This document shows, piece by piece, positions 23,951 through 63,922 of a stretch of DNA of 64,000 nucleotides. Numbering within the stretch: the first letter of the stretch is position 1; every line of letters starts with the position of its first letter. Below the pieces are notes generated by a model that had not been told where the DNA came from, did no database searches, and worked only from the letters and a program-made list of their open reading frames with translations. Source of the DNA: Candidatus Bathyarchaeota archaeon (GTDB taxonomy: Archaea; Thermoproteota; Bathyarchaeia; Bathyarchaeales; Bathycorpusculaceae); the NCBI GenBank assembly GCA_963768425.1, contig CAVYHV010000017.1, forward strand, positions 160,001 through 224,000, read 5' to 3'. The translations under genes and the position numbers were made by a program.

Positions 23951-23963
23951 AAGAAAAAGAGAA

Positions 23964-28384: not shown

Positions 28385-29002
28385 CTATTCTTTTCGATTG
28401 GATAGCAATTGTTCGGCAAGTTGCAGTTCTCTTACTGTGTTGATGTTGACGGCTAGTTCTTCTAGGTCTAGCAGATAGATGTCTTGGTCGAGCCATTCGT
28501 CGCCGTAACGTTTGCGACCGTCGATGACGTTGATGCCGACGGGAACCACGTCTTTGTCGTTCATTTTGAACGAGTACTCGACGCACATGCCCAAACGCTT
28601 TTTGGTTTCAAGAGGTACCGCTACGGTTAGGGCGGGTTTGCCGCATTGCTCATAGCGTTCCACGATTGCATCCAACACTTCAGCCGTGACAAGAGGTAAG
28701 TCAGCCGCGATAGCTAAGAAAACGCCTAGTTTGAGGTTTTGGCTCGCGTAGCCCATGTCTGAAACATAGTCTTTCCCAGGCGTGTCAACCACTTTGACCG
28801 GGAAGCTGCTCAAGTGTGTGGTAGTCTTCGGTGTGCAAGCGCTTGTTGCAACAATGATGCTGTCTATTTTCTTGGCGTCCTTTAGTGCTTCAATCACGTA
28901 TTCGATTACTGGTTTCCCGCAGATTTTAATCAACGGCTTTTCTTCGCGGATTTGCATGCGTGTTCCTCTTCCGCCAGCCATGACAAGCGCCTTTACGCCC
29001 AA
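28385..29002 (-). CDS. cobY: GTP:adenosylcobinamide-phosphate guanylyltransferase CobY (copy 1)
   Basis: MAGGRGTRM...EKPL, TPGKDYVSD, ADLP, NINT; adjacent to cobS. Confidence 0.88.
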   Translation of the reverse strand: MGVKALVMAGGRGTRMQIREEKPLIKICGKPVIEYVIEALKDAKKIDSIIVATSACTPKTTTHLSSFPVKVVDTPGKDYVSDMGYASQNLKLGVFLAIAADLPLVTAEVLDAIVERYEQCGKPALTVAVPLETKKRLGMCVEYSFKMNDKDVVPVGINVIDGRKRYGDEWLDQDIYLLDLEELAVNINTVRELQLAEQLLSNRKE

Positions 29003-29767
29003 GCAGCCACCGCCAGCAATACAATCACGCAGACCATTCGGGTTATTTCGTTAGTGGCTCCGAAAACGTCGCCTGTGACCCCGCCGAAATGCCTGTGAGC
29101 AACTGCAACCATCACCAAACTTGTGACAACGCTTGCTAAGACAACCATCGCGCCTGCCCAACCAAGCAGAGGCAAAGCAACCGCAAAAGAAAGCACGAGC
29201 GCAACGAGGAGCCTTAAATTACCTTTGCCGCCGCTCATGGCTTCAAGAAATGGGGAATTCATGCCTTGATGAACTGATTTTCCAGCCCAAGCCATGATAA
29301 CCATGGAAAGTTTAGCTGAAGCCTCAATAACAATGATGCCGCCGACAATCAAAGGAATTTTGAACAGACCGTTGACCTACGATTTGTCCAATGGCTAAGG
29401 CTGAGATAAGCATGGTCATAATGCCTATAGATAAGCCTCCTGCACCTGTGAGTTGGTCATGCATAACCTCGATTTTGTGTTCGGGTGTACCATGAGCCAT
29501 GACGCCGTCGCCAAAATCCAGCAAGCCGTCGGTATGGTGAAGCCCAGTAATTAGAAGCAACAAAGCTAAAACTAAGCCGCCGACGACTATGCCTGGCAAA
29601 AATTGGTCAGCCACCCAACCAAAAACCCCAGCAATTAAGCCGATAACTGCGCCGATAAGCGGGAAAGTCCACATGCCTTTGGCGCAGTCAGTAAGCATGT
29701 CCTTGTCCATCGCTACGGGAAAGATTGTGAGGAAAGACAGCAGGTTCTTGAGCTCTTTAATAACCAT
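28993..29767 (-). CDS. cobS: Cobamide synthase CobS (copy 1), frameshifted near 29350
   Basis: FLTIFP, FPLIG, TGLHHTDGLLDFGDG, MHD...GAGG, FGGVTGDVFGA.NE. Confidence 0.88.
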
Positions 29768-29768
29768 C

Positions 29769-30869
29769 TCACTTCAAACCCATAAGCAAACCATAATTGT
29801 GCTCTATCTCTTTAAGCAATAGGTCAGCCGTCACAGCGCCGCCAAGCTTCGCCATAGCAGCGATCGAAGCGCCCCCCGCACCGACCCCTTCCTTCACAAG
29901 ACCCGTCTCGTAGATTTGCAACCCTGGGAAACGTGAACAACCAAAGTTCAGATTAGCCGCTAAAATCGGTACATCACAGAACTGCTTCACAATCCCTTTG
30001 AGGTCAGACGACTTGTCTTTTGCAACCCATCTGGTTGTGCCCACAGCCACGTTACACAAAACGTCGGGCTGCAAAGCGTTAATCAAGGCTAAGACAGCGC
30101 TCATCTGGGTTCCGCCCGCCATCAAAACGGGGACTTGTCCAGCCGCACCAACAACCAAACCTGTGAACGCGGCCATCATCGGGTCGCCAACGCAGGAAAT
30201 CGCCTTAACAGGGTCTTTCGCTAAGCTACCGAAGCTTTGACCTGCAGCCGCCAAACCCGCCTTAACTGTTTCAGCCTTTAAAATGTGGGGATTCTGAGGC
30301 AACGTGCTGCTTACCTTTCCCTCAGCACTCACGCCAAGAGCCGACAGTACGCCAAGTGCGGTTGTTGTTCCCCCTGGAATGCTCTCGCCAATCACAAGGT
30401 AATCAACGGCCTTCGCCAAGTTTTGCCCAGCAATTTTGGCGCGTTCAATAACTTCTGCAACATTGTCAACTGCGTTGCCGCTTCGAATGTCCCTACCAGG
30501 GTTTCCGCCCAAATCTAAAAAAGGAATCTGAGGCTTCACTCTTACCCCGCCGCTGGCTATGAGCACAGGAATGTCGGCGAGTTGCAGAGCGGACCTTGTA
30601 ATCAATCCAGGCGTGGGGATTCCGTCGGGAGTTATGGGAACACCGTTGATGGATTTGCATTTGCCTAAAAGAAGCAGTTCAGCGTCTGCGGGCGGAGTGT
30701 AATCCGTGAATTCGGGGTTTGCACCAGCCGCAGATATTCCTGCGATTTTGCCAGTTTCAGTTGTTCCGATTGTGCAGATGAAAAGTGGGTTTTTGCCCGC
30801 GACTTCATCGAGGAAAGCCTTAGCTTTCAACTCGTTATTCGCGATTATTACGTCGAGTGCTTGGTCCAT
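29769..30869 (-). CDS. cobT: Archaeal-type nicotinate-nucleotide:base phosphoribosyltransferase CobT
   Basis: GISAAG...TP.ADAE, GESIPGGTTTA, MAGGTQM, VKEGVGAGG. Confidence 0.88.
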   Translation of the reverse strand: MDQALDVIIANNELKAKAFLDEVAGKNPLFICTIGTTETGKIAGISAAGANPEFTDYTPPADAELLLLGKCKSINGVPITPDGIPTPGLITRSALQLADIPVLIASGGVRVKPQIPFLDLGGNPGRDIRSGNAVDNVAEVIERAKIAGQNLAKAVDYLVIGESIPGGTTTALGVLSALGVSAEGKVSSTLPQNPHILKAETVKAGLAAAGQSFGSLAKDPVKAISCVGDPMMAAFTGLVVGAAGQVPVLMAGGTQMSAVLALINALQPDVLCNVAVGTTRWVAKDKSSDLKGIVKQFCDVPILAANLNFGCSRFPGLQIYETGLVKEGVGAGGASIAAMAKLGGAVTADLLLKEIEHNYGLLMGLK

Positions 30870-30870
30870 C

Positions 30871-31557
30871 CTACGTTTTTCCCTTGCCTTTCGGCTTGAC
30901 TTCGAACTTTTTGATTTCGAGACATCCGAAGCCGCCGTCTAGCTTGTGCTTTTGTGTTTCTAGGATTTCAATCTTTTTCCTAAATGTGGGTCCATCGGTC
31001 ACGACCGTATGGTATTCGCCGCCTTCGCCGCATGGGTCAACGCCGCCGAGTTTAAGGATATCGTCATAAAATTTTCTGTCCAGCACCCTTCCAAGCCACT
31101 CAACACCAAGCTTCTCCAGGTTCGTGCGGACTACGGTTGCTTTAAAACCAGTTTTCAAGTAATCAAGATAAATCTGCTTCGTGTCACCCATCCATAGCGG
31201 CTTAATCGGCTTCAAACCGACTTCTTTGAGTACTCTGCCCAGCCAACCCTCTTCATGCCCAGCCACCTCATAGATGTCACCTGTAACTAAGCCTTCGACG
31301 CCTTCGGCTTTGAAGTGTCGCAACGCAGCTTTGAAGTCGTCCTCGTACGTTTTGGGGGTTGCTTGTTGTTTCACAATGGGGATTCCAATTGCGTCTGACT
31401 GAGCATCCAAAATTCCTACCGGTATCATGTGGAAGTTTGATTTTTCCTTGCTCATCATCATGGTCAAAATTTTGACTACTTCGTAGCCCTGCTGGATTGC
31501 CAAGTAGTAAGCGTAGCAACTGTCTTTGCCGCCGCTCCAAGAAGCAACAACTTTCAT
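30871..31557 (-). CDS. DUF71/Dph6-like ATP-dependent amide ligase (copy 1)
   Basis: PP-loop SWSGGKDS, GDI, PLW, DPCGEGGEYHT.V.DGP.F. Confidence 0.88.
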   Translation of the reverse strand: MKVVASWSGGKDSCYAYYLAIQQGYEVVKILTMMMSKEKSNFHMIPVGILDAQSDAIGIPIVKQQATPKTYEDDFKAALRHFKAEGVEGLVTGDIYEVAGHEEGWLGRVLKEVGLKPIKPLWMGDTKQIYLDYLKTGFKATVVRTNLEKLGVEWLGRVLDRKFYDDILKLGGVDPCGEGGEYHTVVTDGPTFRKKIEILETQKHKLDGGFGCLEIKKFEVKPKGKGKT

Positions 31558-31982
31558 TTCCGTTTAATCCTCCCATAATATCCTTCACCTTTAACCGCTG
31601 AACCAACGACAACGTCAAGTTGAACGGATTTGCCAAAGATTCAAGGGAAAGAGTCCCTGAAACGTGTGGACAACAAAACGCGGTTTTAGCGGTCAAATAT
31701 TCAGATAATCTGCCAATCGATAGAAGATTGAGTGGAACAATCGGTTTTTTTTCGATGTTCAGCAAATTATCCTTTCCCGTGTTTGGTTGGTTTATCCAAC
31801 CTTTTCATATAAGCATTACGGTTTCTACAATCAATCAACACTTAGAAGAATTTTAAGCTCAAAACGCAGGTTTTGAAGCCGCAAATCCGTGGTTGAAATT
31901 CTCCTGCCTAAGCATTTGTCTGAAGGTTTTCCAGAAAGCTTTTAATTGTGTATCGATTGAGGAGTTTACGCTGTTGGGCTCC

Positions 31983-33142
31983 ATGGTCAAAACAAGGCTA
32001 TGCATAGTTACACATACTTTTCTGCCCCATGTCGGTGGGATAGAGAAGGTTGTTAATGAACAGAGCAAACGGCTCATGAAACGAAACTTTAAGCCCATGG
32101 TTGTCACAAACCGCATCGGCACTCCCAAAACCTACACGGTTGATGGCGTAAGTGTCGAGTGCTATGAATCACTAAACACAGGCTTTCGCCTCGGCATACC
32201 CTACTCCATTCCAACGCCTACAAGCCTTGGAACCTTTCTTAAAACCGTAAACGCAAGCGACATAGTCCATGCACACGGTCACCCATATCTAACCTCGCTT
32301 ATCGCCGCAAAACTCGCCAAAAGGTACGACAAACCCTTCGTTTTAACCCAGCATAACACATTCATCCAGTACGACAGCATGTTCGACAACGTTGAGCGAC
32401 TCAACGACTTGTCAGTAGGGAAGGAGACGCTTAAAGACGCAGACAGAATAATCGCGGTAAGCAACGCAACCAAAGAGTACGTCCTCAGCTTAGGCGCAAA
32501 ACCGAGAAAAAATCAAAGTCCTCCACAACGGCGTAGACTTCGATCATTTCAGGCATCTGCCGGGAAAACAGGAGGAAATGCGAGCCAAATTTGGGATCCC
32601 AAAGAACGCAGCCGTGGCAATAACTGTGACGCAGGCTGGTTTACAAGAACGGGATTGACACTTTGATTGAAAGCGCAAACCTCGCGATCAAAAAGAACCC
32701 GAACCTTGTTTTCCTTGTCGTTGGAAAGGGACCCGACCAAAACGGGGTTCAAGCCAGGATTCGAGAGTTAGGGATAGAGGACAACTTTCGGCTAGCGGGT
32801 TTCGTCAGCGACCAGGATTTACCGTTTTGCTATAACGCGGCCGACTTCTTTGTGTTGCCGTCTAAATCTGGTGAAGGTTTGCCTTTGGTTGCGCTTGAAG
32901 CCATGGCTTGCGGCTTGCCGGTTGTAGCGACAGACGTCGGGGGGATTAGGGAGATTCTGATGGAAGATCACGGTGAATTGGTGCCGCCTAACCAGCCGGA
33001 GCTGATGGCTAAGGCAATCTTAGAATATTCCTATGCTGATTTATCTGTTGGCATACTGGAGCTCCGTGCTGCGGTTGAAGAAAAGTTTAGTTGGGAAAGA
33101 AACGTTGAAGCTCTCGTGGGAATATACGAAGAGCTTATTTAA
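31983..33142 (+). CDS. GT4 family glycosyltransferase, frameshifted
   Basis: FLPHVGGIE, VHAH, HNGVD (alternate frame), EGLPLVALEAMACGLPVVATDVGG. Confidence 0.88.
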
Positions 33143-33184
33143 CCAGATGTGAAAACACTATAGCCTTCAAGATGAGAGTTAGCC

Positions 33185-33922
33185 ATGACATCAAAAGTTG
33201 AAATGGTTTCGGTCGTCATTCCGACACTTAACGAAGCAGGAAACATACTTGAAGCAGTCAACACTATCCACAAAGAGCTAGCGTACCCCAACGAAATCAT
33301 CGTCGTTGACGGCAACTCCACCGACGGAACAATGGAGCTTGTGAAAGACACAAGTTTTTGCCGGCTGATCATCGAGCCAAGACGCGGCTATGGAATAGCT
33401 TTGCGGACTGGCATGAAAAACGCGAAGGGAAACATCATCGTTATGGTTGACGGTGACGGAACCTACGAGGTAAAACACATCAACCGCCTAGTTGAAAGAA
33501 TGCTTGAGAAAGACGCGGACATGGTTTTAGCCACACGCATGTTTGACCCGAAAAAAGCCATGGGATTCACGAATTTCATCGGGAACAAAATCATTACCTT
33601 GGTTTACGACTTCTTTTACAGCCAACTGCTCAGCGACACGCAATCGGGGTTTCGGGCGATATCGCATGAATGCATCGACAACGTGCCTTTGGTGGAAGGG
33701 GACATGGCTTTTGCCACCGAAATGCTGGTGCAGTTCGCCAAGGTCGGGTACAACATGGTTGAAATCCCCACAACTTACAAACCGCGCAAATATGGGCAGA
33801 CTAAGCTTAAACCATTTAAGTCAGGTATCGAAATATTTAGCACCATATTCAAGGGATTTCTTGATGCGGATACTGTTAGAACGTGCCAAAAGCATTGGAG
33901 AGAAAATAGGCTTAAACGATGA
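33185..33922 (+). CDS. GT2 polyprenol-phosphate glycosyltransferase (DPM1-like)
   Basis: VIPTLNE, VVDGNSTDGT, GYG, DGDGTY, DTQSGFRA. Confidence 0.9.
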   Translation: MTSKVEMVSVVIPTLNEAGNILEAVNTIHKELAYPNEIIVVDGNSTDGTMELVKDTSFCRLIIEPRRGYGIALRTGMKNAKGNIIVMVDGDGTYEVKHINRLVERMLEKDADMVLATRMFDPKKAMGFTNFIGNKIITLVYDFFYSQLLSDTQSGFRAISHECIDNVPLVEGDMAFATEMLVQFAKVGYNMVEIPTTYKPRKYGQTKLKPFKSGIEIFSTIFKGFLDADTVRTCQKHWRENRLKR

Positions 33923-34397
33923 CAAAGGCTACTTAGTTGCTATCGCCCTTGCCTTAATCATTATATCATCGTTGCTTGCAGGGTACTACTTGCTCTATAA
34001 GCCGGTGCCTGAAGGCTTCAGCACGATTTATCTGCTTGATTCGCAGAACAAAGCAGAAAATTACCCGCAAACTTTAGTTTCTAACCAGAACAGCACCTTT
34101 ACCTTGCCAGTTACTGTCGTGAACAACATGGGATACACAATGAAATACGAGGTTTTAGTGAAAATCACTGATGACCTAACCTCCTTGCCGGTCAATGTAT
34201 TGCCTATTGACACATACAATTTCACCTTGGGCAATGGTAAAACCTACCAAAAATCAGTCACAGTTACAGAAAACCAAGCTGGAACCTACTCAGTGGTTTT
34301 TGAGCTTTGGCAATACAATTCTGCTTCAGGAACTTACCAGTTTACAAACAACAATGTGCAGAATTATTGTGTCTTAAACATTCAAGTTATAAGTTAA
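33864..34397 (+). CDS. DUF1616-like membrane-anchored protein, start uncertain
   Basis: TM helix then EGFSTIYLLD...AENYP...VVNNMG...VVFELW. Confidence 0.65.
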   Translation: MRILLERAKSIGEKIGLNDDKGYLVAIALALIIISSLLAGYYLLYKPVPEGFSTIYLLDSQNKAENYPQTLVSNQNSTFTLPVTVVNNMGYTMKYEVLVKITDDLTSLPVNVLPIDTYNFTLGNGKTYQKSVTVTENQAGTYSVVFELWQYNSASGTYQFTNNNVQNYCVLNIQVIS

Positions 34398-35861
34398 GTT
34401 TTCTTGTGAGTTTCAGCGTATTGTTTTTCGATTGCGACTCTGTGGATGTTGTTGTAGGCGCAGAAAGGTATGATTTTCAAGTCAGGCGTAATGTAGTGGA
34501 CAACGCATCGTCGGACACGATTTACGTCAAAGTTGTATGAATCCATAAACGCCATGCAGCCGAGCAGAAAGATCCGTCTGCGGATTTTGCCAAGCGACTG
34601 ATACGAGGGCGAAAGATGCATTCGCATAATCGAATTCATCAGAGTAAGCATCCCCACTTCCTGAGTTACCAATAGCATATTCATCGAAAGCATAGACGCC
34701 ATAAACAGCGAAGAAAGCAAGGAGAGTTTGCCTTTAGAATCCGCGTTCTCAGCGGTTTTTCGGATGGTGGAGAAGAATCGATCAAAGTTGACGAAACGGT
34801 TAATCGGGAACATTTTGCCGTCTTTGGAAACGTAAATCCAGTTTACGATGCCGCATTGGGGACTGCATGAGAAGAGGGGCCATGGCTTCTGCATGAATTT
34901 ACGCATTATCTTGATCGGAGAAGTCATAACCGACATGGGGTACAAATCGGTCATTTTTATTTCGCCGCCTGTTTGTTTTTCAACGTCTTCTGCAAATGAC
35001 CATTCGCGGAAGTTTTCTCGGAATGGGTTCTCGGTGGCTCTGCCCGTGAAGGCGATAGGTTGGAAAATCAAGCCTCGCACGATATCTGTGTTTTTGGCGG
35101 CGAACCGTATCATGTCGCCGACTTCTTTATCGTTCAGGCTCTTCATCAATGTGTTAACTAGGATGATTTCCATGTCGTATTTGCGGCAAACTTCGATAGC
35201 TTTGAGTTTTTCCTCTAGCAGCGCTTTTCCCCGAATCTTCTTGTTAAAATCGTCATGGAAACTGTCAAACGACAAATAAACAATGTTTAAGCCGTTAGCC
35301 TTTAGCTTCTTCGCCAGACCCGGGGTATCAACCAAATGTGTTCCGTTGGTTGCCAGAATAGTCATGAATTTCAACTTGTGGGCCGCCCCGATGATTTCAG
35401 GCATGTCCTCCCGTTCCAGGGGTTCTCCGCCTGAGAAAAGAATGGCTGGTGGCTTGGGGTTAGCTTGGCTAACGAACTCCAGCATTTTAATTAAGTGCTC
35501 TTTGGTTGGTTCATAATCGGTTCCTTGTTCCGGAAAAGTTGAGAAGCAGATGGCGCATCTGAAGGTTGCAGCGTTTCGTTACGTCGATTACGCCGATAAC
35601 CGTGCCTGAAGCGTGTTTGTTGCAGGTTTCGCATTTGTAGGGGCAGCCTTCTGGGTTTTTAGGGGCGTTCAAGTCGCCGAGGTATTGGAATTGATCATAA
35701 GTTTGCATGTGGTTGAAGACGGGTGTGCTTTGCCAGTGGGTGGCTTCGAATTCGCCGTGCTCTGGGCATTGCTTGGCGATTTTTATTTTGCCGTTAGCTT
35801 GAGTTAGTTGGGCGTCAATTTTCTTTTGGCATTCTGGACAGATGCTTTTTGTGTCGCTCAA
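34394..35861 (-). CDS. tes: Tetraether lipid synthase (Tes/GDGT-MAS, MJ0619 family) homolog, frameshifted near 35560
   Basis: SICPEC...CPEHGEF, GCPYKCETC, DVTKRCNL/CAICF, GGEP, FQPIAFTGR, CMAFMDSYNFDVNRVRRCVVHY.TPD..IIPFCAYN. Confidence 0.85.
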
Positions 35862-36754
35862 CTTACAGCCCTCCTACCATGTGGGATAGCCGCTTGTAGT
35901 ATTAAAGCCAACGGAAGCAGAATCATCGACATTGTTACTATACGTTCGTATTTCCGCACACTCGCGATATTTGAAGCTGTAGTTGCCAGGCGAACTGAAG
36001 AATAAATCAATAGGGCGCTCCAAACAAGAATGGGAGCCAAATAGTAAAAGTTAAAGTGGCGCTACGAAAAAGGGAAATGGTGCAAGTAACCCTGTTAAGA
36101 AAAAGAACCCAGCCGCGGCTTTCGATGAGTCTCCGATACCGATTTTCTGCGGAAGCGTGGGATACCCCGTTTTTGAGTCGCCGTCAAGGCTCAGCACGTC
36201 GCGCAGCACGTTGCCGCCTATAGTTCCCAAAGCTATTGGGTAGAGACTGAGAGAAATGATGCTGATGGTCGGCGGGACTAGAGATTGTTGCTTCTCCGTA
36301 GAGAAAAGCGGTTCCTGTTAAGATTCCGACCAAAACGTTGGCTGCAAACCCTGACTTACGTTTTACAAACAGTAGAGTAAACCAGCAGCAAAGCTGAGTC
36401 GGCAGCGATAATCGCGAAACTTAACCAGTTAATGAAGAAAGCCAGAGCTAAACCCGCTGCGAAAAGCACACTTGAAATAGCCACGACCTGCTTCAAGGAC
36501 AGGGAACCTGAGGGTATGGGTCGTTTAGGCTTTATAACTGCGTCACTTTCTCTGTCGAAGTAGTCGTTTATTGCGAAGCCTGCGGAGGTTATGAAAGCCA
36601 TGGAAAAGAAAATCAGCAAAACCGTTTGGACGCTGAGGTCGGCGGGATTTTTTGTGATAGCAAAAGCTGTCAGGAGGGATAAACCGCCAGTCATCAACCA
36701 GTATGGAAGACGCAACAGAGCGATTAGTCCTCTGGCTGGGGCTGGAGCAGCCAT
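35858..36754 (-). CDS. UbiA prenyltransferase, DGGGP-synthase-like, with about three frameshifts
   Basis: INDYFDRESD..KPKRPIPSG, KRKSGF.AN, RDVLSLDGD..GYPTLP. Confidence 0.82.
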
Positions 36755-37683
36755 TAAATTTTCCTGTCAGCGATGACTTCTTTAATGCTCTCCTCAAGGC
36801 TTACTTTGGGGCTCCAGTTTAACTCCTTTTTTGCTTTGCTGTTATCGAACCATATGGTGGTAACGTCGCCCTGCCAGGAGACGCCTGTGGTTGTTACGAC
36901 TGTTTTGTCCTGAAGATTAAGGATTTGAAGCATGAGTTTGGCGAGGTCAATTATTTTTATGGTCGTCCCGTAACCTAAATTGTAGGTTCTGCCGTTTGTG
37001 AACTCTTCCGAGCCTACGGTTATCAGCGCGTCAACCACGTCTGAAACATGCACGAAATCGCGTGACTGCAAGCCTGTGCCGATTATTTCAAGTTTGGCCG
37101 GGTTCTTGGCGATTTTGTCTAAAAAGTCATGGATAACCCCGTGGCACCTTAAACCGTATACGTTGGCGAACCTCATGATGGTGACGTCTAATCCGTATTG
37201 GTCGCGGTACATTTCACAGTATTCTTCACCGACAACCTTGGATAACCCGTAACATGAGAAAGGATGAAAACCATAGGTCTCAGGAGTTGGGAAGACAGTT
37301 GGGTTACCGTAGACTGCGGCGCTGGACGCAAAAACCAGTTTGGCATCGTCTTTACGGGCTTTTTCCAGCACATGAACGGTTCCTTTAGCGTTAGTTTCAA
37401 AATCTATCAGCGGATTCTCCATGGAGTATGGAACAACAACTTGAGCGGCTAAATGGTATATTAGGTCGGCTTTTTCCACGGAAAGCAGCTTCTTGGGGTC
37501 GAGGATGTCACCTTTCACAAGTTTTGCTTTGCCGACATCTTTTACATTTTCCATTTTGCCGCTTGACAAGTTATCGTAAATCGTCAAATCGGAAGTTAAG
37601 CCGGCAAGGCGCTTGCACAAATGGAACCCGATGAAGCCTGCGCCGCCCGTTACAAGAATCTTTTTCCCCTTAAGTTCTCCCAT
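36754..37683 (-). CDS. NAD-dependent nucleotide-sugar epimerase/dehydratase
   Basis: VTGGAGFIG, HLAA, ASSAAVYG, YGLSK, RDFVHV. Confidence 0.92.
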   Translation of the reverse strand: MGELKGKKILVTGGAGFIGFHLCKRLAGLTSDLTIYDNLSSGKMENVKDVGKAKLVKGDILDPKKLLSVEKADLIYHLAAQVVVPYSMENPLIDFETNAKGTVHVLEKARKDDAKLVFASSAAVYGNPTVFPTPETYGFHPFSCYGLSKVVGEEYCEMYRDQYGLDVTIMRFANVYGLRCHGVIHDFLDKIAKNPAKLEIIGTGLQSRDFVHVSDVVDALITVGSEEFTNGRTYNLGYGTTIKIIDLAKLMLQILNLQDKTVVTTTGVSWQGDVTTIWFDNSKAKKELNWSPKVSLEESIKEVIADRKI

Positions 37684-37730
37684 AACTATCACGACAAAGT
37701 CTATATTCCATTTCAATTAGTGTAGGGTAT

Positions 37731-43821: not shown

Positions 43822-43823
43822 GG

Positions 43824-50717: not shown

Positions 50718-50742
50718 ATGAGTTTTTTCTCCCGTAAGTTTC

Positions 50743-54579: not shown

Positions 54580-54602
54580 CTATTTTTTAGCTATCCAACA
54601 AC

Positions 54603-55399
54603 TCATCTCAGGGCTGCAGAGAAGACGATAAAATGACTGCAAGCGGGCTGGGAATCCACGTGCTTGTTTCGTAGTAGTCTGATACGCTTAGAAAACAGAT
54701 AGTTTTCATTTTTGAACACGCGCCCTATGCTATCATGGTCTAGAGCGTGCTCTTTTTTGTGCCAGTAATCAGACAACTCATAATCGATTGAAGGAACTTT
54801 CAGCCCAGTGATTTGAAAATACAAACTGTTTAACAGCGGGTTCGAGTGCAAATAGATTCCTTTCACAATGGTTGATAGGCTGCTTGGTTCATTTTTCCAG
54901 TAGAAAGGGGAGGCTTCGTGGTCAAGGTACATTACGCCGCCTTTCTTTAGAAAAACGGAGAGGCAATGGAGAGCGCCGACATAGTCGGGCAGATGATGAA
55001 GCACGGAGTAGCATGTCACTAAGTCAAATTTTCCCTCTTCAAAAGACAACTCTTCAATGGGCGAACAAATCACGGTTAACTTGTTGTTTTGCAGGTACCC
55101 GGGGTATTTTCTTTTAAGAATCGCGCACATTTCCTGCGAGATATCCACAGCTGTTACGGTGTAGCCCATCTGCAAAAGTTTGCCTGTTAGGTTGCCGGTG
55201 CCTGCTCCAACATCCAAGAGCTACTTTGTGGTTTTCCGTTACAAGCTTGTCGATCTTCTTGCAGTTTAGCAGCTGTTCTTTTCTGTTCTTGTTTTGAGTA
55301 CACTTCTGGGTGAAGCAGTTCATAGTATTGTGCTTCAAGATGGTGGACAGTTATGTTTGCTTGATGAATTTTTTCTTTAAGCGTTGGGTCTTGAAGCAA
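54603..55399 (-). CDS. Class I SAM-dependent methyltransferase, frameshifted near 55215
   Basis: DVGAGTG, AVDIS..M, FDLV...SVLHH, LKKGG. Confidence 0.85.
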
Positions 55400-55526: not shown

Positions 55527-58297
55527 TTATGCGTGTTTTCTCATCATAAGAAGCGCTAATACTGCGCCGATTATGATTATCACGATGATGATTGCGATGC
55601 CTACGTATTCGACTGTTGATTCACTTGCTACTCCGGTAAGTGGTGTTGCAGTTGGTGCTTCGGTTGCATGTGCTCCGGTTGCGTACGAAGCTTGTTTCTG
55701 CAGATGATGGCCAGTAGCCGTTGGTGCCTGCGAAAGTGGCGAATACTGTGAAGTTGCCTGCGATTGTTGGTGTGTATGATAGGGTGTACATGCCGCTTGC
55801 GTCAGTTGTTGCTGTTCCGACTGGGTAGTGGTTTCCGTTAGAGTCTAAGACTGCGATTTGCACTTTAACGCCTGTGAAGTTGGTTGGCATATGCCTGTTG
55901 CTGGTAGACGTAGCCCATCCATGCTTGCATGCTTGCGTCAGAGGCGCATGGGACACCGTTTGGAAAGTCGCCTTTCTGCTGTGTTCCCTGTGTGCCAGTT
56001 GCAGTATCCACGACTGAACCGCGTATCACTACTGGTACTCCGACTGTTGTTGCAACGTTTGGTGCGTCGACGGTTGTTTGGCTGGGTCCTCTGCCTACGA
56101 CGTAGATTGAGTTGTCGTAGCCGTTGAACCAGGTGTTATAGCCGTCTGCCATAGCATATGAAGTTGTGAAGAATTCGCCTGTGTAGCCTGAAAGACTCCA
56201 TATTTCTTGTCCGGTTGTAGCGTTAATAGCGACGTTCACTCCGCCCTTGAAAAGCGGTGTTTCGATAGTGTGCTCTGTGGTTACCATGTATACTACGCCG
56301 TTGCCGATTGCGTTGATCTGCATTGGGTAAACACCGAATGGAGTGTTAAAGCCAGCGTATGAACTGTTGGTAGAGCCTGTTGCGCCATTACCCCAAGTCC
56401 ACAGTAGGTTTCCAGTAGTCAAGTCCCAAGCAGTAGAGTATTCCTGCGTAGCCTGTGCTGTAGAGTTTTCCGTTAGCTGCGACTCCTCCGATGATTGGAA
56501 TTGCTGGGTTGCCGTAGTAGTCAAGAGCCGCCATTGACGCGGTTGGACCCCAAAGCTTCTGACCTGTCGACATGCTGTAGCCTACCCATTGCATGGTTTC
56601 TTTGTATGCTTCTGTGAAGACGCCGTGACCGCCGTTAGCTGTTATATCTGCCGGACCTGGTTCTACTGTGATGTTTCCTGCTGGTGCTTGTAACCGTGTT
56701 AGTCCACAGAACAGTGCCAACGCTGCCTGGTGCCATGTTTATGCCATAGTATGTGTAAGGTGTCCAGACTATCGGATGGAGAATGTCTGCAAAAGGGCCA
56801 CCTGGGAAAGTGCCAGTTGATCACAATCAGCTTCCTTGTTGTAGAAAGCATCTTGTATCGTAGGTGCGGCTGGTAAGGGTCGGCATCGAAATGTTAAAGT
56901 CTAACAAGGCTTGGGATTGCTTCCGTTGAGTATAGTGTCGGACCGGACTTAGGCTTGGCACTGTTGAAGCACCGGAATATGTATTGTCCCATAGTTTGGA
57001 TGAGTTCCATTCTTGCAAGTACACTTTTAGAGGTCCTGAAGGAACGGTAACCGGAATGGGATAGTCATTGTGAGTTGGTCCGTAGTTTACGAAGGATATG
57101 TGACGAGATATTCGCCTGATGGACCCGAGCATCGTTGTGCCGGCGGGAACATTGGTTATGTTGAAAATCGATGTTCCTGTGAAGGCATCATAGGCATACC
57201 AGTTGCCTGGAGCACCGGCTCCGAAGAGTACCACCGTTGAGGCAGTTGAAGATATTAGCACTGGTGGCCAGACGCCGTGTTGGTTAGGGTCTTCAGCATC
57301 ATATATGTATGCGAAGCTGATATGCTTTCATGTTTGGGTTAGTCCAAAGTGTCTGTCCTGTTTGCAGGTCAACGCAGGTTGTTGCTCCGTATCCTTGTGC
57401 AACCGGTTCCTCCTGCGACACCAGACCAGCCTATCTGGTTGGTGTAGATGAGCATTCCGTCGACGATTATTGGGTTGGTGTATCTTTGGCTGTATGCTGA
57501 TCCTTCGAAGTAGGTGTTTCCTGGAATAGCAACTGTGTTTCCTCCGACGACTCCGCCGCTTTGAATCTGTTTAGTCCACATGACATGGCTGGTTAGTGAT
57601 CCGACTGCATCGCCTGGGAATGATTGCTGGTTTGAAGTTCCGCCCCAGCCTGCGTAGCCTGGGCTTCCGGTGCCTAGCCAGTTTGACGAGAGGGTGTACC
57701 AATAGGTGTTTTCGCCGTAGATTGGTCGAGTCCAGTATGCCGTTGGTAGTGGGCCGCTTGCCGTCGCTCCAGCAATGGGTGAAGATTGCACAGTGAGAGT
57801 TGTTGATGCGGTGCTTGGTGCATAGGTATCATTGATATATGCGTTCGGAAAGTTGGTGGACCAAAAAGTGTGGCCTCAGATTAGCATCGTTGGCGAGCGT
57901 TAGTGTCTGTCCTGGGAATATGAATGTTAACTTGTAGGTGCCAACTGTATTTGGAGTGAAGGCGTAGTCTTGTGCGGATGTCGTGTCTTGAACCACTGGG
58001 AAAGTTTCTGTTGTGTTTGTGCCGTCTGGAGCCGTAATAACCAGCTGGTAATCATGGAATCGATAGTTGTTAATTGTATAGCGTGTTGTCATAGAGCTTG
58101 TCAAGCCACATGATAACGTACGCTTGCTGGCCGACGCCGATTGGGTTAGGTGATACAGTGATAAAAGCGTATGTTGGAATAGTCCATGCGGGTGTATGTG
58201 CATTTGCGGAGGGTATAAGCATCATTGAAGCTGTCATTGAAAATATGAATAGTATCGAAATTGCAATAGAGATTGTTTTGTTTTTTCCAATTTGCAT
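55527..58297 (-). CDS. Large secreted PQQ-like beta-propeller surface protein with a C-terminal TM anchor, heavily frameshifted
   Basis: Signal peptide ...PSANA; fragments VSPNPIGVGQ, PLPTAYWTRPI, repeated TGxxLW blades, GVPCASDASM..WM, Thr/Pro linker, TM helix and RKHA tail. Confidence 0.75.
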
Positions 58298-58808: not shown

Positions 58809-59831
58809 TTGGCGGCAAAGATAGATGAAATCGATGCGAAAATTATTAAAATCCTACTTTTAGAATCGCGGACAAGCTTCACCGACATAGCTGCTGAATG
58901 CAAAATAACCGTGACCGCGGTTCGGATGCGTTATAAACGTTTATGGAGAGACGGCGTAATTAACGGTGAAAAAATGCTTGTCAATCCCCACTGCCTGGGT
59001 TATCCGCATATTGCAGATTTGGGAATGATAACTTCGGTTGAAAACGAGGAAGAAGTCAAAAAATTTCTTGAAAGCAAACCTTACATAGGCGAATTGATCG
59101 GTCCCTTGGGGCATTACAGTTTTTGGGGAAAAGTCGCCTTACGTGAACTAAACAAACTTCATGACATAATCGAGGATTTAGAGTCAAACAGCAACATCAA
59201 GCATGTTGACGCGTTTATCTGGGCAGAAGCCATAAACGTTGAGTTCCCGCAAAACCTGATTATCAACCCGTTAGATCGGGAGAACCCTCAGAAAATCGTG
59301 GAGCAACCACCCTTAATTAACCTAAACCAAGCAGCATGTGCCTTTGACGAAGTCGACAAGAAAATTGCGTTAATTCTCACGCAGAACTCCCGCACCCCTT
59401 TCAAAAGCATCGCGGCAGAATTGAAGATTTCAAGCAAAACCGTAATTCAACGATACAAGAAGCTCCGGGAAACCCTGTTGACCCGTTCAACCATAACCAT
59501 CAACCTACATAAGCTCGGGTACAACGCACTCGCTAACGTTTTCATAAAAGTTTCGAACCGCAGCAAAATGCCCGACCTATACTCTCAGCTGCTTCAAATT
59601 CCCAACGTAATAGTTATCATGCGGCAGATAGGAGCCTACGACTTGTACTGCGCGATTCCCTTGGAAGATTTCGAGAAACTGTTTGAAGCCAACGAGAAAA
59701 TTCTGAGGATCGCCGGAGTTGAAACAGCAGAAGTTTACCTTACACCAGTTCCGCCTGCTTGGCCGCTGAATTTGTTCCCTTCGCTGATTGAAAGCGAATA
59801 CATGAAGCCGAAGTATTGGCCTGGCAAATAA
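58809..59831 (+). CDS. Tandem (double) Lrp/AsnC family transcription regulator
   Basis: Two HTH-AsnC units: IDEIDAKII..L...SRTSF..IA and FDEVDKKI...L..NSRTPF..IA. Confidence 0.9.
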   Translation: MAAKIDEIDAKIIKILLLESRTSFTDIAAECKITVTAVRMRYKRLWRDGVINGEKMLVNPHCLGYPHIADLGMITSVENEEEVKKFLESKPYIGELIGPLGHYSFWGKVALRELNKLHDIIEDLESNSNIKHVDAFIWAEAINVEFPQNLIINPLDRENPQKIVEQPPLINLNQAACAFDEVDKKIALILTQNSRTPFKSIAAELKISSKTVIQRYKKLRETLLTRSTITINLHKLGYNALANVFIKVSNRSKMPDLYSQLLQIPNVIVIMRQIGAYDLYCAIPLEDFEKLFEANEKILRIAGVETAEVYLTPVPPAWPLNLFPSLIESEYMKPKYWPGK

Positions 59832-59928: not shown

Positions 59929-61323
59929 GTGAACCACAAAATGAAGCCTCATGTTACTCTCGTTAACCCAGCGGCTCCAGCTATGGCTGTGATGCACCTG
60001 CCGTTCGCTCTTTTAGGCCTAGGGTATTTGGGCGCGGTTTTGGAGCAAAACCAGTTCCCAGTCGATGTAATTGATTGCCAGGTACTCAAGTTATCTTTTG
60101 AAGATTTCAGAGCCGAGATATCTAAACGTCAGCCAGATATCGTAGGGTTCACCTCATCCACATTGACGTACAATACCGCGATGAAGCTAGTTAAGATCGC
60201 AAAAGAGGCTTGCCCCAAATGCATAACAGTTGCCGGCGGCGCCCACGTTACGTTTTGGGATGACAAGGCCCTTGAAGAATGCCCGCAGCTCGACGTCGTT
60301 GTAAGGAAAGAGGGAGAGTACACGTTGTTGGAGCTGGCGCAGAGAGTTGAAGCAGACAAAAGCTTCGATGACGTGATCGGGACAACCTGCAGAAAGGACG
60401 GAAAAATAATCAGGAACCCCGATCGACCATACATCGAAGATTTAGATTCGTTACCGTTTCCGGCGCGGCATCTTTGGCCAATGGAGCGTTTCCGTGAATT
60501 GGAAGATATACTTTACCTTGCAACGAGTCGAGGATGTGTGTATTGGTGCGAATTCTGCTCAACAGTGAGAATGCACGGCCGCAAATACCGAATGAGAAGC
60601 CCAAAAAACGTCGTTGACGAAATCGAACTTCTGCATAAAACTTATGGCATCAGCAAATTCACGTTCTGTGACGACGCTTTCACCGTTGACCAGCCCAGAG
60701 CCGAGGAGTTATGCAACGAAATCATGAAGCGCGGCTTGAAGATCGAGTGGAACTGCGGAACAAGAGTTGACATGCTCACCAAAGACTTGCTTTTGAAAAT
60801 GAAGAATTCGGGCTGCATAACAGTGTGGTTCGGCGTTGAATCAGGTTCCCAGCAAGTCTTAGACGCCATGAAAAAAGGCATCACCCCCGAATTAACCATG
60901 AAAGTTCTCGGTTGGCTAAGCGAACTGGGCATGACGCCTATCCCCAACGTTATCTTAGGCTTCCCAGGAGAAACCAAGGAAAGCGCATGGAAAACCATCA
61001 GGTTTGTTGAAAAAATATCTCCTCACGACACCGGCTTCTACAATGTTGCGACGCCGTTTCCAGGAACGCCGATGTATGACATGGTGAAGGAGAAAGGCTG
61101 GCTTAAAGTGACTGATTTTGACATGTACGACACCTGCCACCCCATCTTTGAAACTCCGACAATGAGTATGAAAGAGCTTGGGAAACTGCGACAAGCCGCG
61201 TACATGCACTTCTACCTTCGCAGAGGATACTACTTTGACAAAAGAAGAAGATTCAAACTGAATACAGCGCTGGTTGTTGGGTACAATCTTGTTGCGTACA
61301 TCAAGCTAAAACTTAGGAAATAG
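59929..61323 (+). CDS. Cobalamin-binding radical SAM enzyme 5
   Basis: LVNP, LGLGY, GGAH, EGE, SRGCVYWCEFC, CDDAF, GVESG, PFPGT. Confidence 0.92.
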   Translation: MNHKMKPHVTLVNPAAPAMAVMHLPFALLGLGYLGAVLEQNQFPVDVIDCQVLKLSFEDFRAEISKRQPDIVGFTSSTLTYNTAMKLVKIAKEACPKCITVAGGAHVTFWDDKALEECPQLDVVVRKEGEYTLLELAQRVEADKSFDDVIGTTCRKDGKIIRNPDRPYIEDLDSLPFPARHLWPMERFRELEDILYLATSRGCVYWCEFCSTVRMHGRKYRMRSPKNVVDEIELLHKTYGISKFTFCDDAFTVDQPRAEELCNEIMKRGLKIEWNCGTRVDMLTKDLLLKMKNSGCITVWFGVESGSQQVLDAMKKGITPELTMKVLGWLSELGMTPIPNVILGFPGETKESAWKTIRFVEKISPHDTGFYNVATPFPGTPMYDMVKEKGWLKVTDFDMYDTCHPIFETPTMSMKELGKLRQAAYMHFYLRRGYYFDKRRRFKLNTALVVGYNLVAYIKLKLRK

Positions 61324-61425
61324 AAACACAAAAAAGTCTCAGAGGAAACGCAGGGAAACAATTCTTTTTCCTTCTTGACCGTAATTGATATTAGTTTTTG
61401 CCACAATGTTTAGCGTAAACCTTGG

Positions 61426-62421
61426 TTGGTGTCAAACGTTCCGCTCCTTACCATATTGGTCGCCGTCGCCGTCATGACTTTAGCAATTGCCTTAGATTTG
61501 GCTGTGGGAGACCCTTCTCCGAATTACCCTGACAAGTGGGTCTTCAAGCTTCACCCAACCGTAGTCATGGGTAAATACACCAAGAAAATTGAGCCATACT
61601 TCAAGAACCCAGACCCGAAAGTGGAAAAGTTCCTCGGCGCCCTCTTGGCGCTGACGGTAATAGCCACCTTCGCGGTCCCAGCCTATTTTGGCTTATGGGC
61701 AATCTACACTTACATAAGCATCTTCGTTTACGCGTTCGTCGGCATAATACTGGTGAAAATGACCATTTGCATCAAGCTTGAAACTGATTGGGCAAAAGCA
61801 GTAGCCAAAGCGATTCAGGCGGACGAGATTGCAGAAGCCAAGAAGTACAGTCACTTCTCGAGGAGAGACTCAACAGATCTCAACGGTCCACAGATGGGCA
61901 GCGCAGTAATCGAGTCCATGGCTGAAAATCTGATCGACTTCAAACTCTCGCCCATGATGTCCTTCGCCCTGTTCGGTGTTACAGGCGCAATCGCTTTTAG
62001 AGCAATCAACACGCTTGACGGAATGGTAGGCTTCAAAGACAAAGAGCACATCAACACAGGATGGTTCAGCGCAAACCTTGACACCGTCGTCAACTACATA
62101 CCAACAAGGCTTACTGCCTTGCTAATGATTGTGGCAGCAGCTATATTGCGGAAAGACGCTAGGAACGCTTGGAGAATCGCTTGCAGAGACCACAAGAAAA
62201 CGCCAAGCAGAAACCATGGTTGGCCAATGGCTGCGATGGCTGGTGCTTTGCGGATTCAGTTGGAGAAGCCTGGGCAGTACGTTTTGGGGGACAGTCAAGA
62301 GCCTTTGACGGGTGAGAAGATTTTGGGTGCCCTGCGGATTAGGGACGTGACGATTGTTCTTTGGGGGCTGATTTGCGTTGGGGTCATTGTGGGTGTGCGC
62401 TTGTACTTTTTGCCGATTTAG
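61426..62421 (+). CDS. cbiB: Adenosylcobinamide-phosphate synthase CbiB
   Basis: LD..VGDP...HP, ES.AEN..D, FRAINTLDGMVG, LDT..NYIPTRL, PS.N.GWP.AAMAGAL. Confidence 0.92.
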   Translation: MVSNVPLLTILVAVAVMTLAIALDLAVGDPSPNYPDKWVFKLHPTVVMGKYTKKIEPYFKNPDPKVEKFLGALLALTVIATFAVPAYFGLWAIYTYISIFVYAFVGIILVKMTICIKLETDWAKAVAKAIQADEIAEAKKYSHFSRRDSTDLNGPQMGSAVIESMAENLIDFKLSPMMSFALFGVTGAIAFRAINTLDGMVGFKDKEHINTGWFSANLDTVVNYIPTRLTALLMIVAAAILRKDARNAWRIACRDHKKTPSRNHGWPMAAMAGALRIQLEKPGQYVLGDSQEPLTGEKILGALRIRDVTIVLWGLICVGVIVGVRLYFLPI

Positions 62422-62458
62422 TGCAAAGTTTTAATCAAAGCGCCAATGGTATTATGGC

Positions 62459-63922
62459 TTGAGAAGTACGTGCATGCGAGTTTGCTTGATTAATCCGCCT
62501 CGAATCCAGCCTAAAGCATGGGGAAAACCAAACGTGTTCCCACCTATAGTTTTGGCTTCGGTTGCCGCCGTCCTCGAGAAAAAGCATGCTGCATCTATCA
62601 TCGACGCGCCAACCGAAGGCTGGAGAGACGTCACGGAGCTGGATGAAACCAAGTACCGGGTCGGCTTAAGCGATCAAACCATAGCTGAACGCATCAAACA
62701 ATGGAAACCCGACGTTGTCGTCATGGAGATTCCTTTCTCTGGTTGGTCAACCACTGCGTTCGCGGTTATCCACGCGGTAAAAGCAGCAAACAAAAAAATT
62801 GTTACAGTGTTAATGGGTCAGCATCCTTCGGCTCGACCCGAGGCTTGCCTTTCGGATTCGGATATCGATTTTGTCGTTGTGGGTGAACCTGAAAATACGG
62901 TTTTCGAGCTAATCGAAAAGCTAGAGGAAGGTAAACGGGATTTCAGCGGCATAGAAGGGTTAGTCTTCTTGGAGAATGGGAAACCGACTTACACGAAACC
63001 ACGCGCAATTATTGCCGATTTGGATTCGCTGCCGTTTCCCGCTAGGCATCTGCTTCCTATGAAGGTTTACAATGAAGCCGTTAAGGAAAACCCGTTGAGG
63101 GGTGAGATTAGCATGCCTTGGACTATCATGACGACCAGCAGAGGCTGCCCATACAGATGCGTTTTCTGCACGAACTTCATCGTTTGGGGTAGAACCTGGC
63201 GTGGCAGAAGCCCCAAAAACGTAGTGGACGAGCTTGAATCGGTTGTGAAGACTTACGGGGTAAAGCAGATTGACTTCTACGACGAGAACATGACTTTTGA
63301 CAAGAAACGCATGGCAGAAATCTGCGACCAAATAGTTGAGCGAGGCTTACACATAGAGTGGTTCACACCTAACGGCATTCGAGCAGACACGCTTGATGAA
63401 ACCCTTCTGCGAAAGATGAAACAAGCGGGCTGCAAGAAAATCCGCGTTGCCCCAGAATCAGGAGTCCAACGGATCGTCAACGAAGTTATCGGGAAAAGCT
63501 CAGATTTGAAGGCTGTCGAGAACGCCGTTGTTTTGTGCAAAAAGGTCGGGATCAAAGTAGGCTGCTTTTTCGTCTTAGGATTAATCGGGGAAACCAAAGC
63601 TGACATCGAAGAAACCATAAAATTCGCCTACAAACTCAGACGCCTAGGCGCTGATAGCCTCATATTCAGCATAGCAATGCCCATTTACGGCACGGCGCTC
63701 TATGATCAGGCAAAGCAAGGCGGCTACCTAAAAGAAGGCTTCTGCGACTACGCATTAGCAGCCACAGAACCCTTGATTGAAACCCCTGAATTCACAGCGC
63801 AAGACCTACAGGTTCTCTGCATGAAGGCAAACATGGCAAACCCAACTTTCACTAAAGCAAAAATCGCAAGAGCACTGCGCCACCCAAAGAAAACCGCCAA
63901 GATACTGCTCAAAATGAAATAA
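62459..63922 (+). CDS. Cobalamin-binding radical SAM enzyme 6
   Basis: LINPP, MGQH, GEPE, SRGCPYRCVFC, YDEN, APESG, GET, PIYGT. Confidence 0.92.
   Translation: MRSTCMRVCLINPPRIQPKAWGKPNVFPPIVLASVAAVLEKKHAASIIDAPTEGWRDVTELDETKYRVGLSDQTIAERIKQWKPDVVVMEIPFSGWSTTAFAVIHAVKAANKKIVTVLMGQHPSARPEACLSDSDIDFVVVGEPENTVFELIEKLEEGKRDFSGIEGLVFLENGKPTYTKPRAIIADLDSLPFPARHLLPMKVYNEAVKENPLRGEISMPWTIMTTSRGCPYRCVFCTNFIVWGRTWRGRSPKNVVDELESVVKTYGVKQIDFYDENMTFDKKRMAEICDQIVERGLHIEWFTPNGIRADTLDETLLRKMKQAGCKKIRVAPESGVQRIVNEVIGKSSDLKAVENAVVLCKKVGIKVGCFFVLGLIGETKADIEETIKFAYKLRRLGADSLIFSIAMPIYGTALYDQAKQGGYLKEGFCDYALAATEPLIETPEFTAQDLQVLCMKANMANPTFTKAKIARALRHPKKTAKILLKMK

Follow-up and report, generated by a model that had tools for sequence, protein, structure and literature searches.

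Gene clusters that combine gms, gmm and, in part, grs are the closest described relatives of the locus examined here, a gene island in a 64,000-nucleotide stretch of DNA (the window) from a Candidatus Bathyarchaeota archaeon (assembly GCA_963768425.1, contig CAVYHV010000017.1, positions 160,001 to 224,000). Gms, the synthase of glycerol monoalkyl glycerol tetraethers (GMGTs), is homologous to AhbD and carries 100 additional residues at its N-terminus (Garcia et al. 2024, PMC11214058). Its domain order, including a six-helix N-terminal domain and a bridging beta-hairpin, has been described by Li et al. (2024, PMC11186832). The gms gene clusters with gmm, which encodes a B12-binding radical S-adenosylmethionine (SAM) methylase, and with grs. 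Bathyarchaeota are major holders, with 188 Gms and 307 Gmm homologs, the latter being most of those known and often present as several 'Gmm2' copies per genome; Gms sequences from peat mostly group with Bathyarchaeota (PMC11214058). These and the other papers cited are drawn on in excerpt.

Further parts of the island have described relatives of their own. One B12-binding radical SAM (B12-rSAM) enzyme from a Bathyarchaeota metagenome-assembled genome (MAG), whose gene adjoins another lipid gene, is the tetraether desaturase Ted (Garcia et al. 2025, bioRxiv 10.1101/2025.10.20.683597). For DUF71 proteins whose genes neighbour cbiB or B12 transporter genes, a role in B12 salvage was predicted in 2012; the signature of this subgroup is ENGE[F/Y]H, and that of Dph6 is EGGE/DXE (de Crecy-Lagard et al., PMC3541065). 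In Bathy-6 MAGs, three loci together make up a nearly complete B12 pathway, B12-rSAM genes number 7-20 per MAG, and proteins with pyrroloquinoline quinone (PQQ) domains are numerous; a hypothetical role in lignin metabolism has been proposed for these proteins together with the radical SAM enzymes (PMC11697101).

The window is positions 160001-224000 of contig C17 in the source genome, G000, which is 91% complete. Its genes belong to an island of ~75 kb that is conserved in Bathy-6-type Bathyarchaeia and lies for the most part inside the window. Like the gms-gmm(-grs) clusters, the island has an AhbD-like SPASM enzyme with a helical N-terminal domain of ~100 residues beside B12-rSAM genes. To this it adds paralogs of the tetraether synthase Tes and of the prenyltransferase DGGGPS in one operon with a short-chain dehydrogenase/reductase (SDR), as well as five glycosyltransferases, nine B12-rSAM genes and a full second set of CobD, CbiB, CobY and CobS. 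These additions were not found in the excerpts of the gms-gmm(-grs) papers, where the neighbourhood figures of the supplements may show some of them. From gene identities, paralogy, synteny, strict co-inheritance and a Gms-like fold, all observed directly, we infer substrates and products: the island is rather likely to build and tailor membrane-spanning tetraether lipids, either glycerol dialkyl glycerol tetraethers (GDGTs) or GMGTs, with a cobamide-finishing set of its own.

Second copies of lipid-core and cobamide genes

A sequence-only reading of this DNA had placed two cobY, two cobS, cobT, cobD, cbiB, three DUF71 genes, lipid genes and glycosyltransferases between 28,385 and 63,922. Every one of them was recovered in place by Pfam and NCBIfam scans of the open reading frames (ORFs) from 24,975 to 63,922. 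The following are central here; primes mark second copies.

34394-35873, minus strand: Tes', divergent tetraether synthase paralog (Zn_ribbon_HMPTM, PF23545, 61.6 bits; NF045702)
35858-36766, minus strand: UbiA', DGGGPS-like prenyltransferase paralog with four single-base indels
36754-37716, minus strand: SDR, NAD-dependent epimerase/dehydratase, first gene of the operon
37731-38560, plus strand: cobS2, divergent CobS, split
38557-39174, plus strand: cobY2, divergent CobY
39248-40681, plus strand: Gms-like radical SAM/SPASM enzyme, candidate GMGT synthase (AhbD-like core and N-terminal domain)
45143-46264, plus strand: cobD', second aminotransferase of the threonine-phosphate-decarboxylase type
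61426-62421, plus strand: cbiB', second CbiB copy, above its cut-off

The lipid genes are integral to the unit, as had been proposed: SDR, UbiA' and Tes' form an operon, and in G003, a one-contig relative of the same genus, the three genes are intact and overlap by 4 nucleotides. The cobS2-cobY2 pair points away from the SDR gene on the opposite strand, and no more than ~50 bp separate the two; in G003 this pair, too, is an intact operon with a 4-nucleotide overlap, and 39 bp lie between the two operons.

In the window, Tes' matches NF045702 in two frames (346.5 and 99.6 bits). Its intact G003 ortholog reaches 465.6 bits against a cut-off of 450, and aligns over its full length, Cys-rich motifs included, to GDGT-MAS (PDB 7TOL, 379 bits). 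Tes' shares with Tes/GDGT-MAS (MJ0619) the order of Zn ribbon, radical SAM core and C-terminal Cys-rich part, but it is a second copy that is confined to two lineages. All 24 other genomes of the genus have a Tes-family match, and most hold a canonical copy (about 560-690 bits) and a divergent one, whole or split. Two kinds can be told apart in the genus and in G040, which belongs to another family of the same order: canonical Tes, elsewhere in the genome, scores 660-690 bits, and the divergent kind beside the island 450-495. The two are 39% identical within G003, and this identity and the lower model score indicate that Tes' is not the housekeeping Tes ortholog. The G003 ortholog of UbiA' (294 residues) scores 172.9 and 171.1 bits on archaeal DGGGPS-type models, below the cut-offs of 269 and 296; the other DGGGPS-like copy of the checked genomes is likewise below its cut-off (177-204 bits), and in G003 the two UbiA copies are 32% identical.

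All five families of archaeal nucleotide-loop assembly (CobD, CbiB, CobY, CobS and CobT) are present, with CobT and CbiB above their cut-offs. In contrast to the ordinary arrangement, CobD, CbiB, CobY and CobS occur twice per genome, and the island copies are co-inherited with Tes'. Every member of the second set is more divergent than its housekeeping twin. Island-type CobS scores 86-101 bits on PF02654 (cut-off 23.2) versus 131-146 for the canonical type in relatives, and the intact G003 ortholog falls just under the TIGR00317 cut-off (108.7 versus 110). In G003, cobS2 is 34% identical to cobS1 and cobY2 36% identical to cobY1. G040 holds both CobS types, and so do 21 of the genus's 24 other genomes; the remaining three, which are 56-65% complete, hold only canonical CobS (G009), a single degraded match (G011) or none (G021). 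CobD' reaches 284.9 bits, under the TIGR01140 cut-off of 290.55, versus 311.7 for the copy at G000:C6:267284, and the two G003 copies are 37% identical. For CbiB' the score is 247.6 bits versus 300.7 for the copy at G000:C6:268434. Canonical cbiB and cobD are adjacent (G000:C6:267,284-269,285), and two CbiB, two CobD-type and two DGGGPS-like genes were found in each of five genomes checked. Judging from their identity of 32-39%, the Tes, UbiA, CobS, CobY and CobD pairs are old paralogs or an acquired module. Neither a second CobD/CbiB/CobY/CobS set nor a cobamide-linked Tes paralog was found described in the literature searched; the supplements of PMC11214058 and PMC11697101 may show part of the cluster.

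Synteny and strict co-inheritance

Forty-two proteins of the window were compared by tblastn with the islands of three genomes of the same genus (G003, G012 and G014) and of G040. Those of G003 and G012 are nearly collinear with the window, while in G014 and G040 the core is complete but rearranged. In G040, a stretch of ~32 kb holds cbiB', B12-rSAM genes, the methyltransferase, the SPASM gene, the glycosyltransferases GT4b, GT2b and GT2c, DUF4234, cobD', cobY2, cobS2, Tes', UbiA', SDR, DUF1616 and GT4a; six B12-rSAM ORFs of at least 330 residues lie in the loci fetched from this genome.

The core module was counted at 49 Tes' loci with full 10-kb flanks, which are kin and come mostly from one family. 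UbiA', SDR, cobS2 and cobY2 are each present at all 49, the SPASM gene at 43 and GT4b at 45. This co-location is far beyond chance. The genes thus form a conserved unit across the genus and a second family, and are not scattered, which bears out the earlier expectation of synteny. A wider set of 80 loci encoding close Tes' relatives comes mostly from MAGs labelled Candidatus Bathyarchaeota or Bathyarchaeia (peat, bog, fen and soil), termite-gut Candidatus Bathycorpusculum and 'Bathy6'; two are labelled Crenarchaeota/Thermoproteota archaeon, three Nitrososphaerota archaeon and three other taxa. At L056, L113 and L117, labelled Candidatus Acidoferrum, Methanocella and Limnocylindrales, Tes' is 80-89% identical to that of Bathyarchaeia, and these are probably binning errors in those MAGs.

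Distribution across the class was assessed in 201 evenly drawn genomes, each at least 80% complete. The Tes' type occurs in 27: G000, 11 of the 12 other genomes of its genus, nine from four further genera of the family and all six of genus g16 in another family (f7). The CobS2 type (at least 42% identity) is present in 26 of the same 27; the 27th has a fragment of it at a contig end. The other 174 genomes lack it and gave only canonical-type matches, of up to 113 bits. Apart from G000, 26 genomes carry Tes', and in 25 of them the Tes' and CobS2 genes share a contig and are no more than 7 kb apart. Their co-inheritance is strict. Full-length SPASM relatives reach much further: about 90 of the 201 genomes have one (a rough count, among 109 with a match at E <= 1e-70). 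The island-type SPASM ortholog (at least 53% identity) occurs in 26 of the 27 genomes with Tes', one of which, G213, has a split copy. One genome of the genus, G166, which is 90% complete, is without Tes', CobS2 and the island-type Gms-like gene, the only such case for the genus in this sample; the whole island may have been lost or not assembled.

The cobamide genes therefore travel with the unit, as the sequence-only reading supposed. The notion of a self-contained pathway was overstated or unsupported, since the island has only the late cobamide steps, as second copies, and no enzyme for the first ether bond.

Radical SAM enzymes and the other island genes

The SPASM enzyme of the island has the published Gms architecture and is a candidate Gms. 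Residues 118-467 match the AhbD and NirJ models (315 and 300 bits; cut-offs 500), and the first 117 residues match none in NCBIfam. Cysteines 127, 131 and 134 are invariant, and SPASM cysteines are present. Many relatives of 460-500 residues align from residue 10-30, and shorter AhbD-like proteins only from ~115, in an exhaustive search of representatives. An AlphaFold2 model built on 50 relatives with the extension (pLDDT 89.5, pTM 0.90) predicts N-terminal helices at 2-15, 17-26, 37-45, 54-74, 79-86 and 89-105, then the barrel, helices at 307-322 and 335-342, a beta-hairpin at 352-364 and the SPASM part. The 120 matches listed for the protein are 77-90% identical and bear generic names only. 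Among 10 distant full-length representatives looked up, Methanofastidiosum was the sole organism name and there was no Thermococcales accession; a sequence search of the PDB found no solved Gms or lipid B12-rSAM structure. In G033, from another family of the order and without CobS and Tes', a full-length Gms-like gene directly adjoins a B12-rSAM gene (G033:C52:30131-32907), which is the simple gms-gmm arrangement.

The B12-rSAM array had been read as six genes. All six are present in the window:

47762-52991, minus strand: operon DUF71_3 - B12c - B12b - B12a
47762-49194, minus strand: B12a, B12-binding radical SAM, split
49350-50717, minus strand: B12b, B12-binding radical SAM
50743-52215, minus strand: B12c, B12-binding radical SAM
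52284-52991, minus strand: DUF71_3, heads the operon
53181-54579, plus strand: B12d, B12-binding radical SAM, split
54603-55217, minus strand: class I SAM methyltransferase with two frame changes (taken with B12d, 53181-55399)
59929-63922, plus strand: B12e - cbiB' - B12f run
59929-61323, plus strand: B12e, B12-binding radical SAM
62459-63922, plus strand: B12f, B12-binding radical SAM

The array is in fact nine genes long and runs past the window: G000:C17:233277-257869 holds its three further B12-rSAM genes, together with two SPASM paralogs and a fourth DUF71. All nine encode a CX3CX2C motif and combine a B12-binding with a radical SAM domain, as in Gmm, Ted and Grs. A quick maximum-likelihood tree was built from 36 ORFs of 330 residues or more (14 from the whole G000 genome, B12a being excluded, and nine, seven and six from the island loci of G003, G014 and G040). 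In it the island genes fall into at least four groups, all well supported and all with G040 represented: B12f; B12b with B12d; C17:233277 with C17:242200; and B12c with B12e and C17:256403. Six other G000 genes stand on long branches outside these groups. On this tree, the nine enzymes would represent at least four old orthogroups.

The four whole genes of the window were scanned against the NCBIfam equivalogs. The best model scores were 251 bits for BchE, 226 for HpnJ, 217 for ApyD and 204 for Sden_1168; for the named equivalogs (BchE, HpnJ, HpnR, BzaD, MCR Gln methylase, ApyD and PhpK) the best scores stood at 251 bits (cut-off 481), 226 (578), 217 (750) and 142 (450). An ESM Atlas search with B12c returned only generic 'B12-binding radical SAM' clusters. 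TIGR04190 was tried as a proxy for the GDGT ring synthase and set aside, having found no match in an S. acidocaldarius control and only 108 bits in G000. By their description, Ted and the GDGT methylases Cgm and Pgm (bioRxiv 10.1101/2025.10.20.683597) are, like the island enzymes, archaeal B12-binding radical SAM enzymes. The reports on Gmm2 and Ted are best taken as precedents and not as tests of the island genes.

The remaining features of the window are:

24975-27426, plus strand: energy-coupling factor (ECF)-type transporter at the island's left edge, made up of a CbiQ-type T component and two ABC ATPases (Pfam ABC_tran twice, CbiQ)
28385-31557, minus strand: operon DUF71_1 - cobT - cobS1 - cobY1, canonical-type nucleotide-loop set
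28385-29002, minus strand: cobY1
28993-29767, minus strand: cobS1, split by a frameshift
29769-30869, minus strand: cobT (TIGR00303, 388.6 bits; cut-off 240)
30871-31557, minus strand: DUF71_1
31893-34397, plus strand: block of GT4a, GT2a and, at its end, a small DUF1616-like membrane protein
31893-33142, plus strand: GT4a, split
33185-33922, plus strand: GT2a, AglJ/dolichyl-phosphate-hexose-transferase-like
40656-45159: block of a DUF362 protein (plus), GT4b, GT2b and GT2c (minus) and a DUF4234 membrane protein (plus)
41630-42829, minus strand: GT4b
42826-43821, minus strand: GT2b
43824-44540, minus strand: GT2c, AglJ-like
46575-47695, plus strand: DUF71_2 (46575-47306) and a conserved 100-residue ORF
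58809-59831, plus strand: tandem Lrp/AsnC-type regulator (AsnC/LysM/LrpA models, ~95 bits)

The GT4a-GT2a-DUF1616 block is present at 38 of the 49 Tes' loci and in G040. Genes of the DUF362-to-DUF4234 block occur at 25-45 of the 49, and all except DUF362 are in G040. An AglB/STT3 oligosaccharyltransferase gene lies at 2-1516 (minus strand), 27 kb from the AglJ-like glycosyltransferases of the island.

The genes of the canonical operon are found at 32-35 of the 49 loci at 50% identity or more, with the cobT-DUF71_1 pair at 32. As in the DUF71-B12 subgroup (PMC3541065), the island DUF71 genes cluster with cbiB and other cobamide genes, and their signatures (EGGEYH, EPGEYH and EDGQGYH) also end in Y-H. 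However, these differ from ENGE[F/Y]H, there are three to four copies, and two stand at the head of, or beside, B12-rSAM operons and not beside transporters. The 100-residue ORF next to DUF71_2 (47393-47695, plus strand) has no family match and is kept in G003 (64%) and G012 (58%) next to DUF71_2/B12b.

The ECF-type transporter is syntenic in G003 and G012, and 28 of the 49 loci hold one. To its left are ordinary housekeeping genes (AglB/STT3, RsmB, MoeA, thermosome, Sua5). Between these and the island, at 20000-24900, lies a low-GC stretch (0.355-0.387) that includes a PLD-like ORF (24214-24816) and a fragment of a DDE transposase (22283-23167) and may be an insertion scar at the left border of the island. 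Six short ORFs on the minus strand at 55621-58203, with weak matches to bacterial Ig-like domains and high GC skew, appear to be pieces of a single large surface protein, interrupted by frame changes at several points. Beyond the window, at G000:C17:224625-254522, the further B12-rSAM and SPASM genes are accompanied by two PQQ-type beta-propeller proteins (880 and 758 residues), an amidohydrolase, a GNAT protein, an RnfD-like protein fused to ferredoxin and two ~800-residue proteins without assigned family. The tandem AsnC protein was considered as a siroheme decarboxylase (AhbAB/NirDL), but it reaches only 35-36 bits on the AhbA and AhbB models (cut-offs 125-140). Because it fits the regulator models instead, a tetrapyrrole-tailoring reading was rejected.

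Competing explanations and meaning for Bathyarchaeia

In the G000 assembly, single-base indels split about ten of the region's genes: cobS1, cobS2, GT4a, Tes', UbiA' (four indels), B12a, B12d, the methyltransferase, a sugar-isomerase-type gene and the Ig-like surface protein. Such damage would be expected of a decaying relic whose genes are pseudogenes, and the inspected frameshift sites are not long homopolymers, three long housekeeping genes of G000 are whole, and Tes' is also split, at other positions, in G002, G004, G016, G021 and G023. With G003 as reference, however, frame changes number 8 over 20,689 aligned residues in the island (affecting 7 of 59 genes) and 11 over 16,623 in six arbitrary G000 regions (8 of 52 genes). 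Since the rates are similar, the breaks are genome-wide and decay specific to the island was rejected. The orthologs are intact in G003, G012, G014 and G040, there are no stop codons or other decay outside the indels, and the Tes' pieces score as high as intact orthologs. Positions 34,300-38,600 were also compared with contigs of four peat-metagenome runs from four studies, which are ~95% alike to the window (165 other letters over 3,470). The indels, tallied as eight reported positions, are confined to the frameshift sites of Tes', UbiA' and cobS2 and one intergenic site. The contigs leave out one base at 35,558/35,560 (one site, the extra base inside the CX3CX2C motif of Tes') and, in UbiA', at 35,892, 36,059/36,060 (one site), 36,279 and 36,370; they put in one behind 38,209 (the cobS2 frameshift) and, in three of the four runs, one at 37,720 (intergenic). 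The breaks look like assembly errors, and a relic, with real decay in this genome, is very unlikely. Elsewhere in G000, a second EF-2-like gene lies in two or three frames (G000:C6:105516-107586), and the main aEF-2 on C12 is whole.

Tetraether tailoring is the best-supported reading, because conserved and co-inherited lipid-core paralogs stand together with Gms-type and Gmm-type enzymes and glycosyltransferases. The translationally coupled SDR, UbiA' and Tes' would assemble or couple a second kind of ether-lipid core, and the Gms-type enzyme would cross-link two biphytanyl chains to give a GMGT. The nine B12-rSAM enzymes would methylate, desaturate or cyclise chains, as do their characterised relatives Gmm, Ted and Grs, and glycosyltransferases of the polyprenyl-phosphate-sugar and GT4 types would add glycosyl head groups or lipid-linked glycans. 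CobD', CbiB', CobY2 and CobS2, alongside the DUF71-B12-type proteins, the canonical cobT-cobS1-cobY1 operon and the ECF transporter, would complete or modify the cobamide required by the radical enzymes at the membrane. The interpretation given in the sequence-only reading is supported in part; the reactions and substrates of the six B12-rSAM enzymes of the window could not be assigned. Several observations weigh against tetraether tailoring. None of the four scanned B12-rSAM enzymes reaches an equivalog cut-off, and the best models are tetrapyrrole, hopanoid, peptide and phosphonate enzymes. The likeness to Gms, Gmm, Ted and Grs was drawn from description and architecture and not from reference sequences. 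A search with PF07143 found no AttH/Hgs-type hydratase, the partner of Ted, in the 91% complete G000, and a Tes model search found no canonical Tes in it. GT2a and GT2c resemble AglJ and dolichyl-phosphate hexose transferases, which fit protein N-glycosylation equally. PQQ-type beta-propeller proteins are interleaved with the array beyond the window. The relatives are kin, so that co-inheritance amounts to about two independent lineages. Finally, genomes of the order without CobS carry up to seven B12-rSAM matches, and local cobamide finishing is therefore not required for such enzymes.

Some of these points would also suit the main rival, a composite island, in which the cobamide genes serve a lineage-specific expansion of B12-rSAM enzymes acting on lignin-derived aromatics, peptides, sugars or cofactors, and Tes', UbiA' and the Gms-like enzyme are a separate neighbouring lipid module. 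The sub-threshold scores to BchE, HpnJ, ApyD and P-methyltransferase models are consistent with this, as are the PQQ-type proteins, amidohydrolase and GNAT among the B12-rSAM genes beyond the window, the abundance of such enzymes in Bathy-6 MAGs, and the 8-15 kb that separate the B12-rSAM block from the Tes' operon in G000, G003 and G012. G040, however, packs B12-rSAM genes, the Gms-like gene, glycosyltransferases, cobD', cobY2, cobS2 and the Tes' operon into its ~32 kb; the characterised relatives next to gms are lipid methylases (PMC11214058), the Bathyarchaeota homolog is a lipid desaturase (bioRxiv 10.1101/2025.10.20.683597), and the lignin proposal comes without experimental support in the excerpts of PMC11697101. 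On balance, a composite island seems unlikely. The second cobamide set might also build an end product other than an ordinary cobamide, which is possible because the set was never found without Tes', shares the short promoter region with its operon and has diverged in every member. UbiA', Tes' and the glycosyltransferases may make a membrane lipid or glycolipid that replaces the nucleotide loop or is joined to it through the aminopropanol-phosphate link, which would give a lipid-anchored corrinoid for membrane-bound radical enzymes. Alternatively, CobY/CobS-type chemistry, in place of CDP-alcohol chemistry, may attach a phosphodiester-linked tetraether head group. Either outcome is a long shot. 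The earlier proposal that a B12-rSAM enzyme methylates glycerol to give butanetriol or pentanetriol tetraethers (BDGTs and PDGTs) fared worse. Enzymes of the B12-rSAM methylase type do stand beside lipid-core genes, and no BDGT enzyme is named in the papers that the literature search found. The idea is weak, and we hold it to be very improbable, because BDGTs are described as a lineage-specific marker of the marine genus Baizosediminiarchaeum (PMC12694404, PMC13003381, in excerpt), and the Tes'/CobS2 module is confined to two lineages (27 of 201 genomes), the relatives of the window being Bathy-6 MAGs from peat, soil and termite guts.

Tetraether tailoring by this island would matter beyond the locus itself. 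Isoprenoid GMGTs and methylated tetraethers of peat and soil serve as environmental proxies, and their producers are uncultured; the island is a concrete, testable gene set for the most abundant Bathyarchaeia of peat. It makes second versions of a tetraether synthase and of an ether-bond prenyltransferase available for study, and places nine uncharacterised B12-rSAM enzymes beside lipid genes, a class that has recently yielded a methylase and an anaerobic desaturase. The co-inherited second cobamide-finishing set raises the question of how membrane-bound B12 enzymes obtain their cofactor, or whether CobS and CobY chemistry has been reused.

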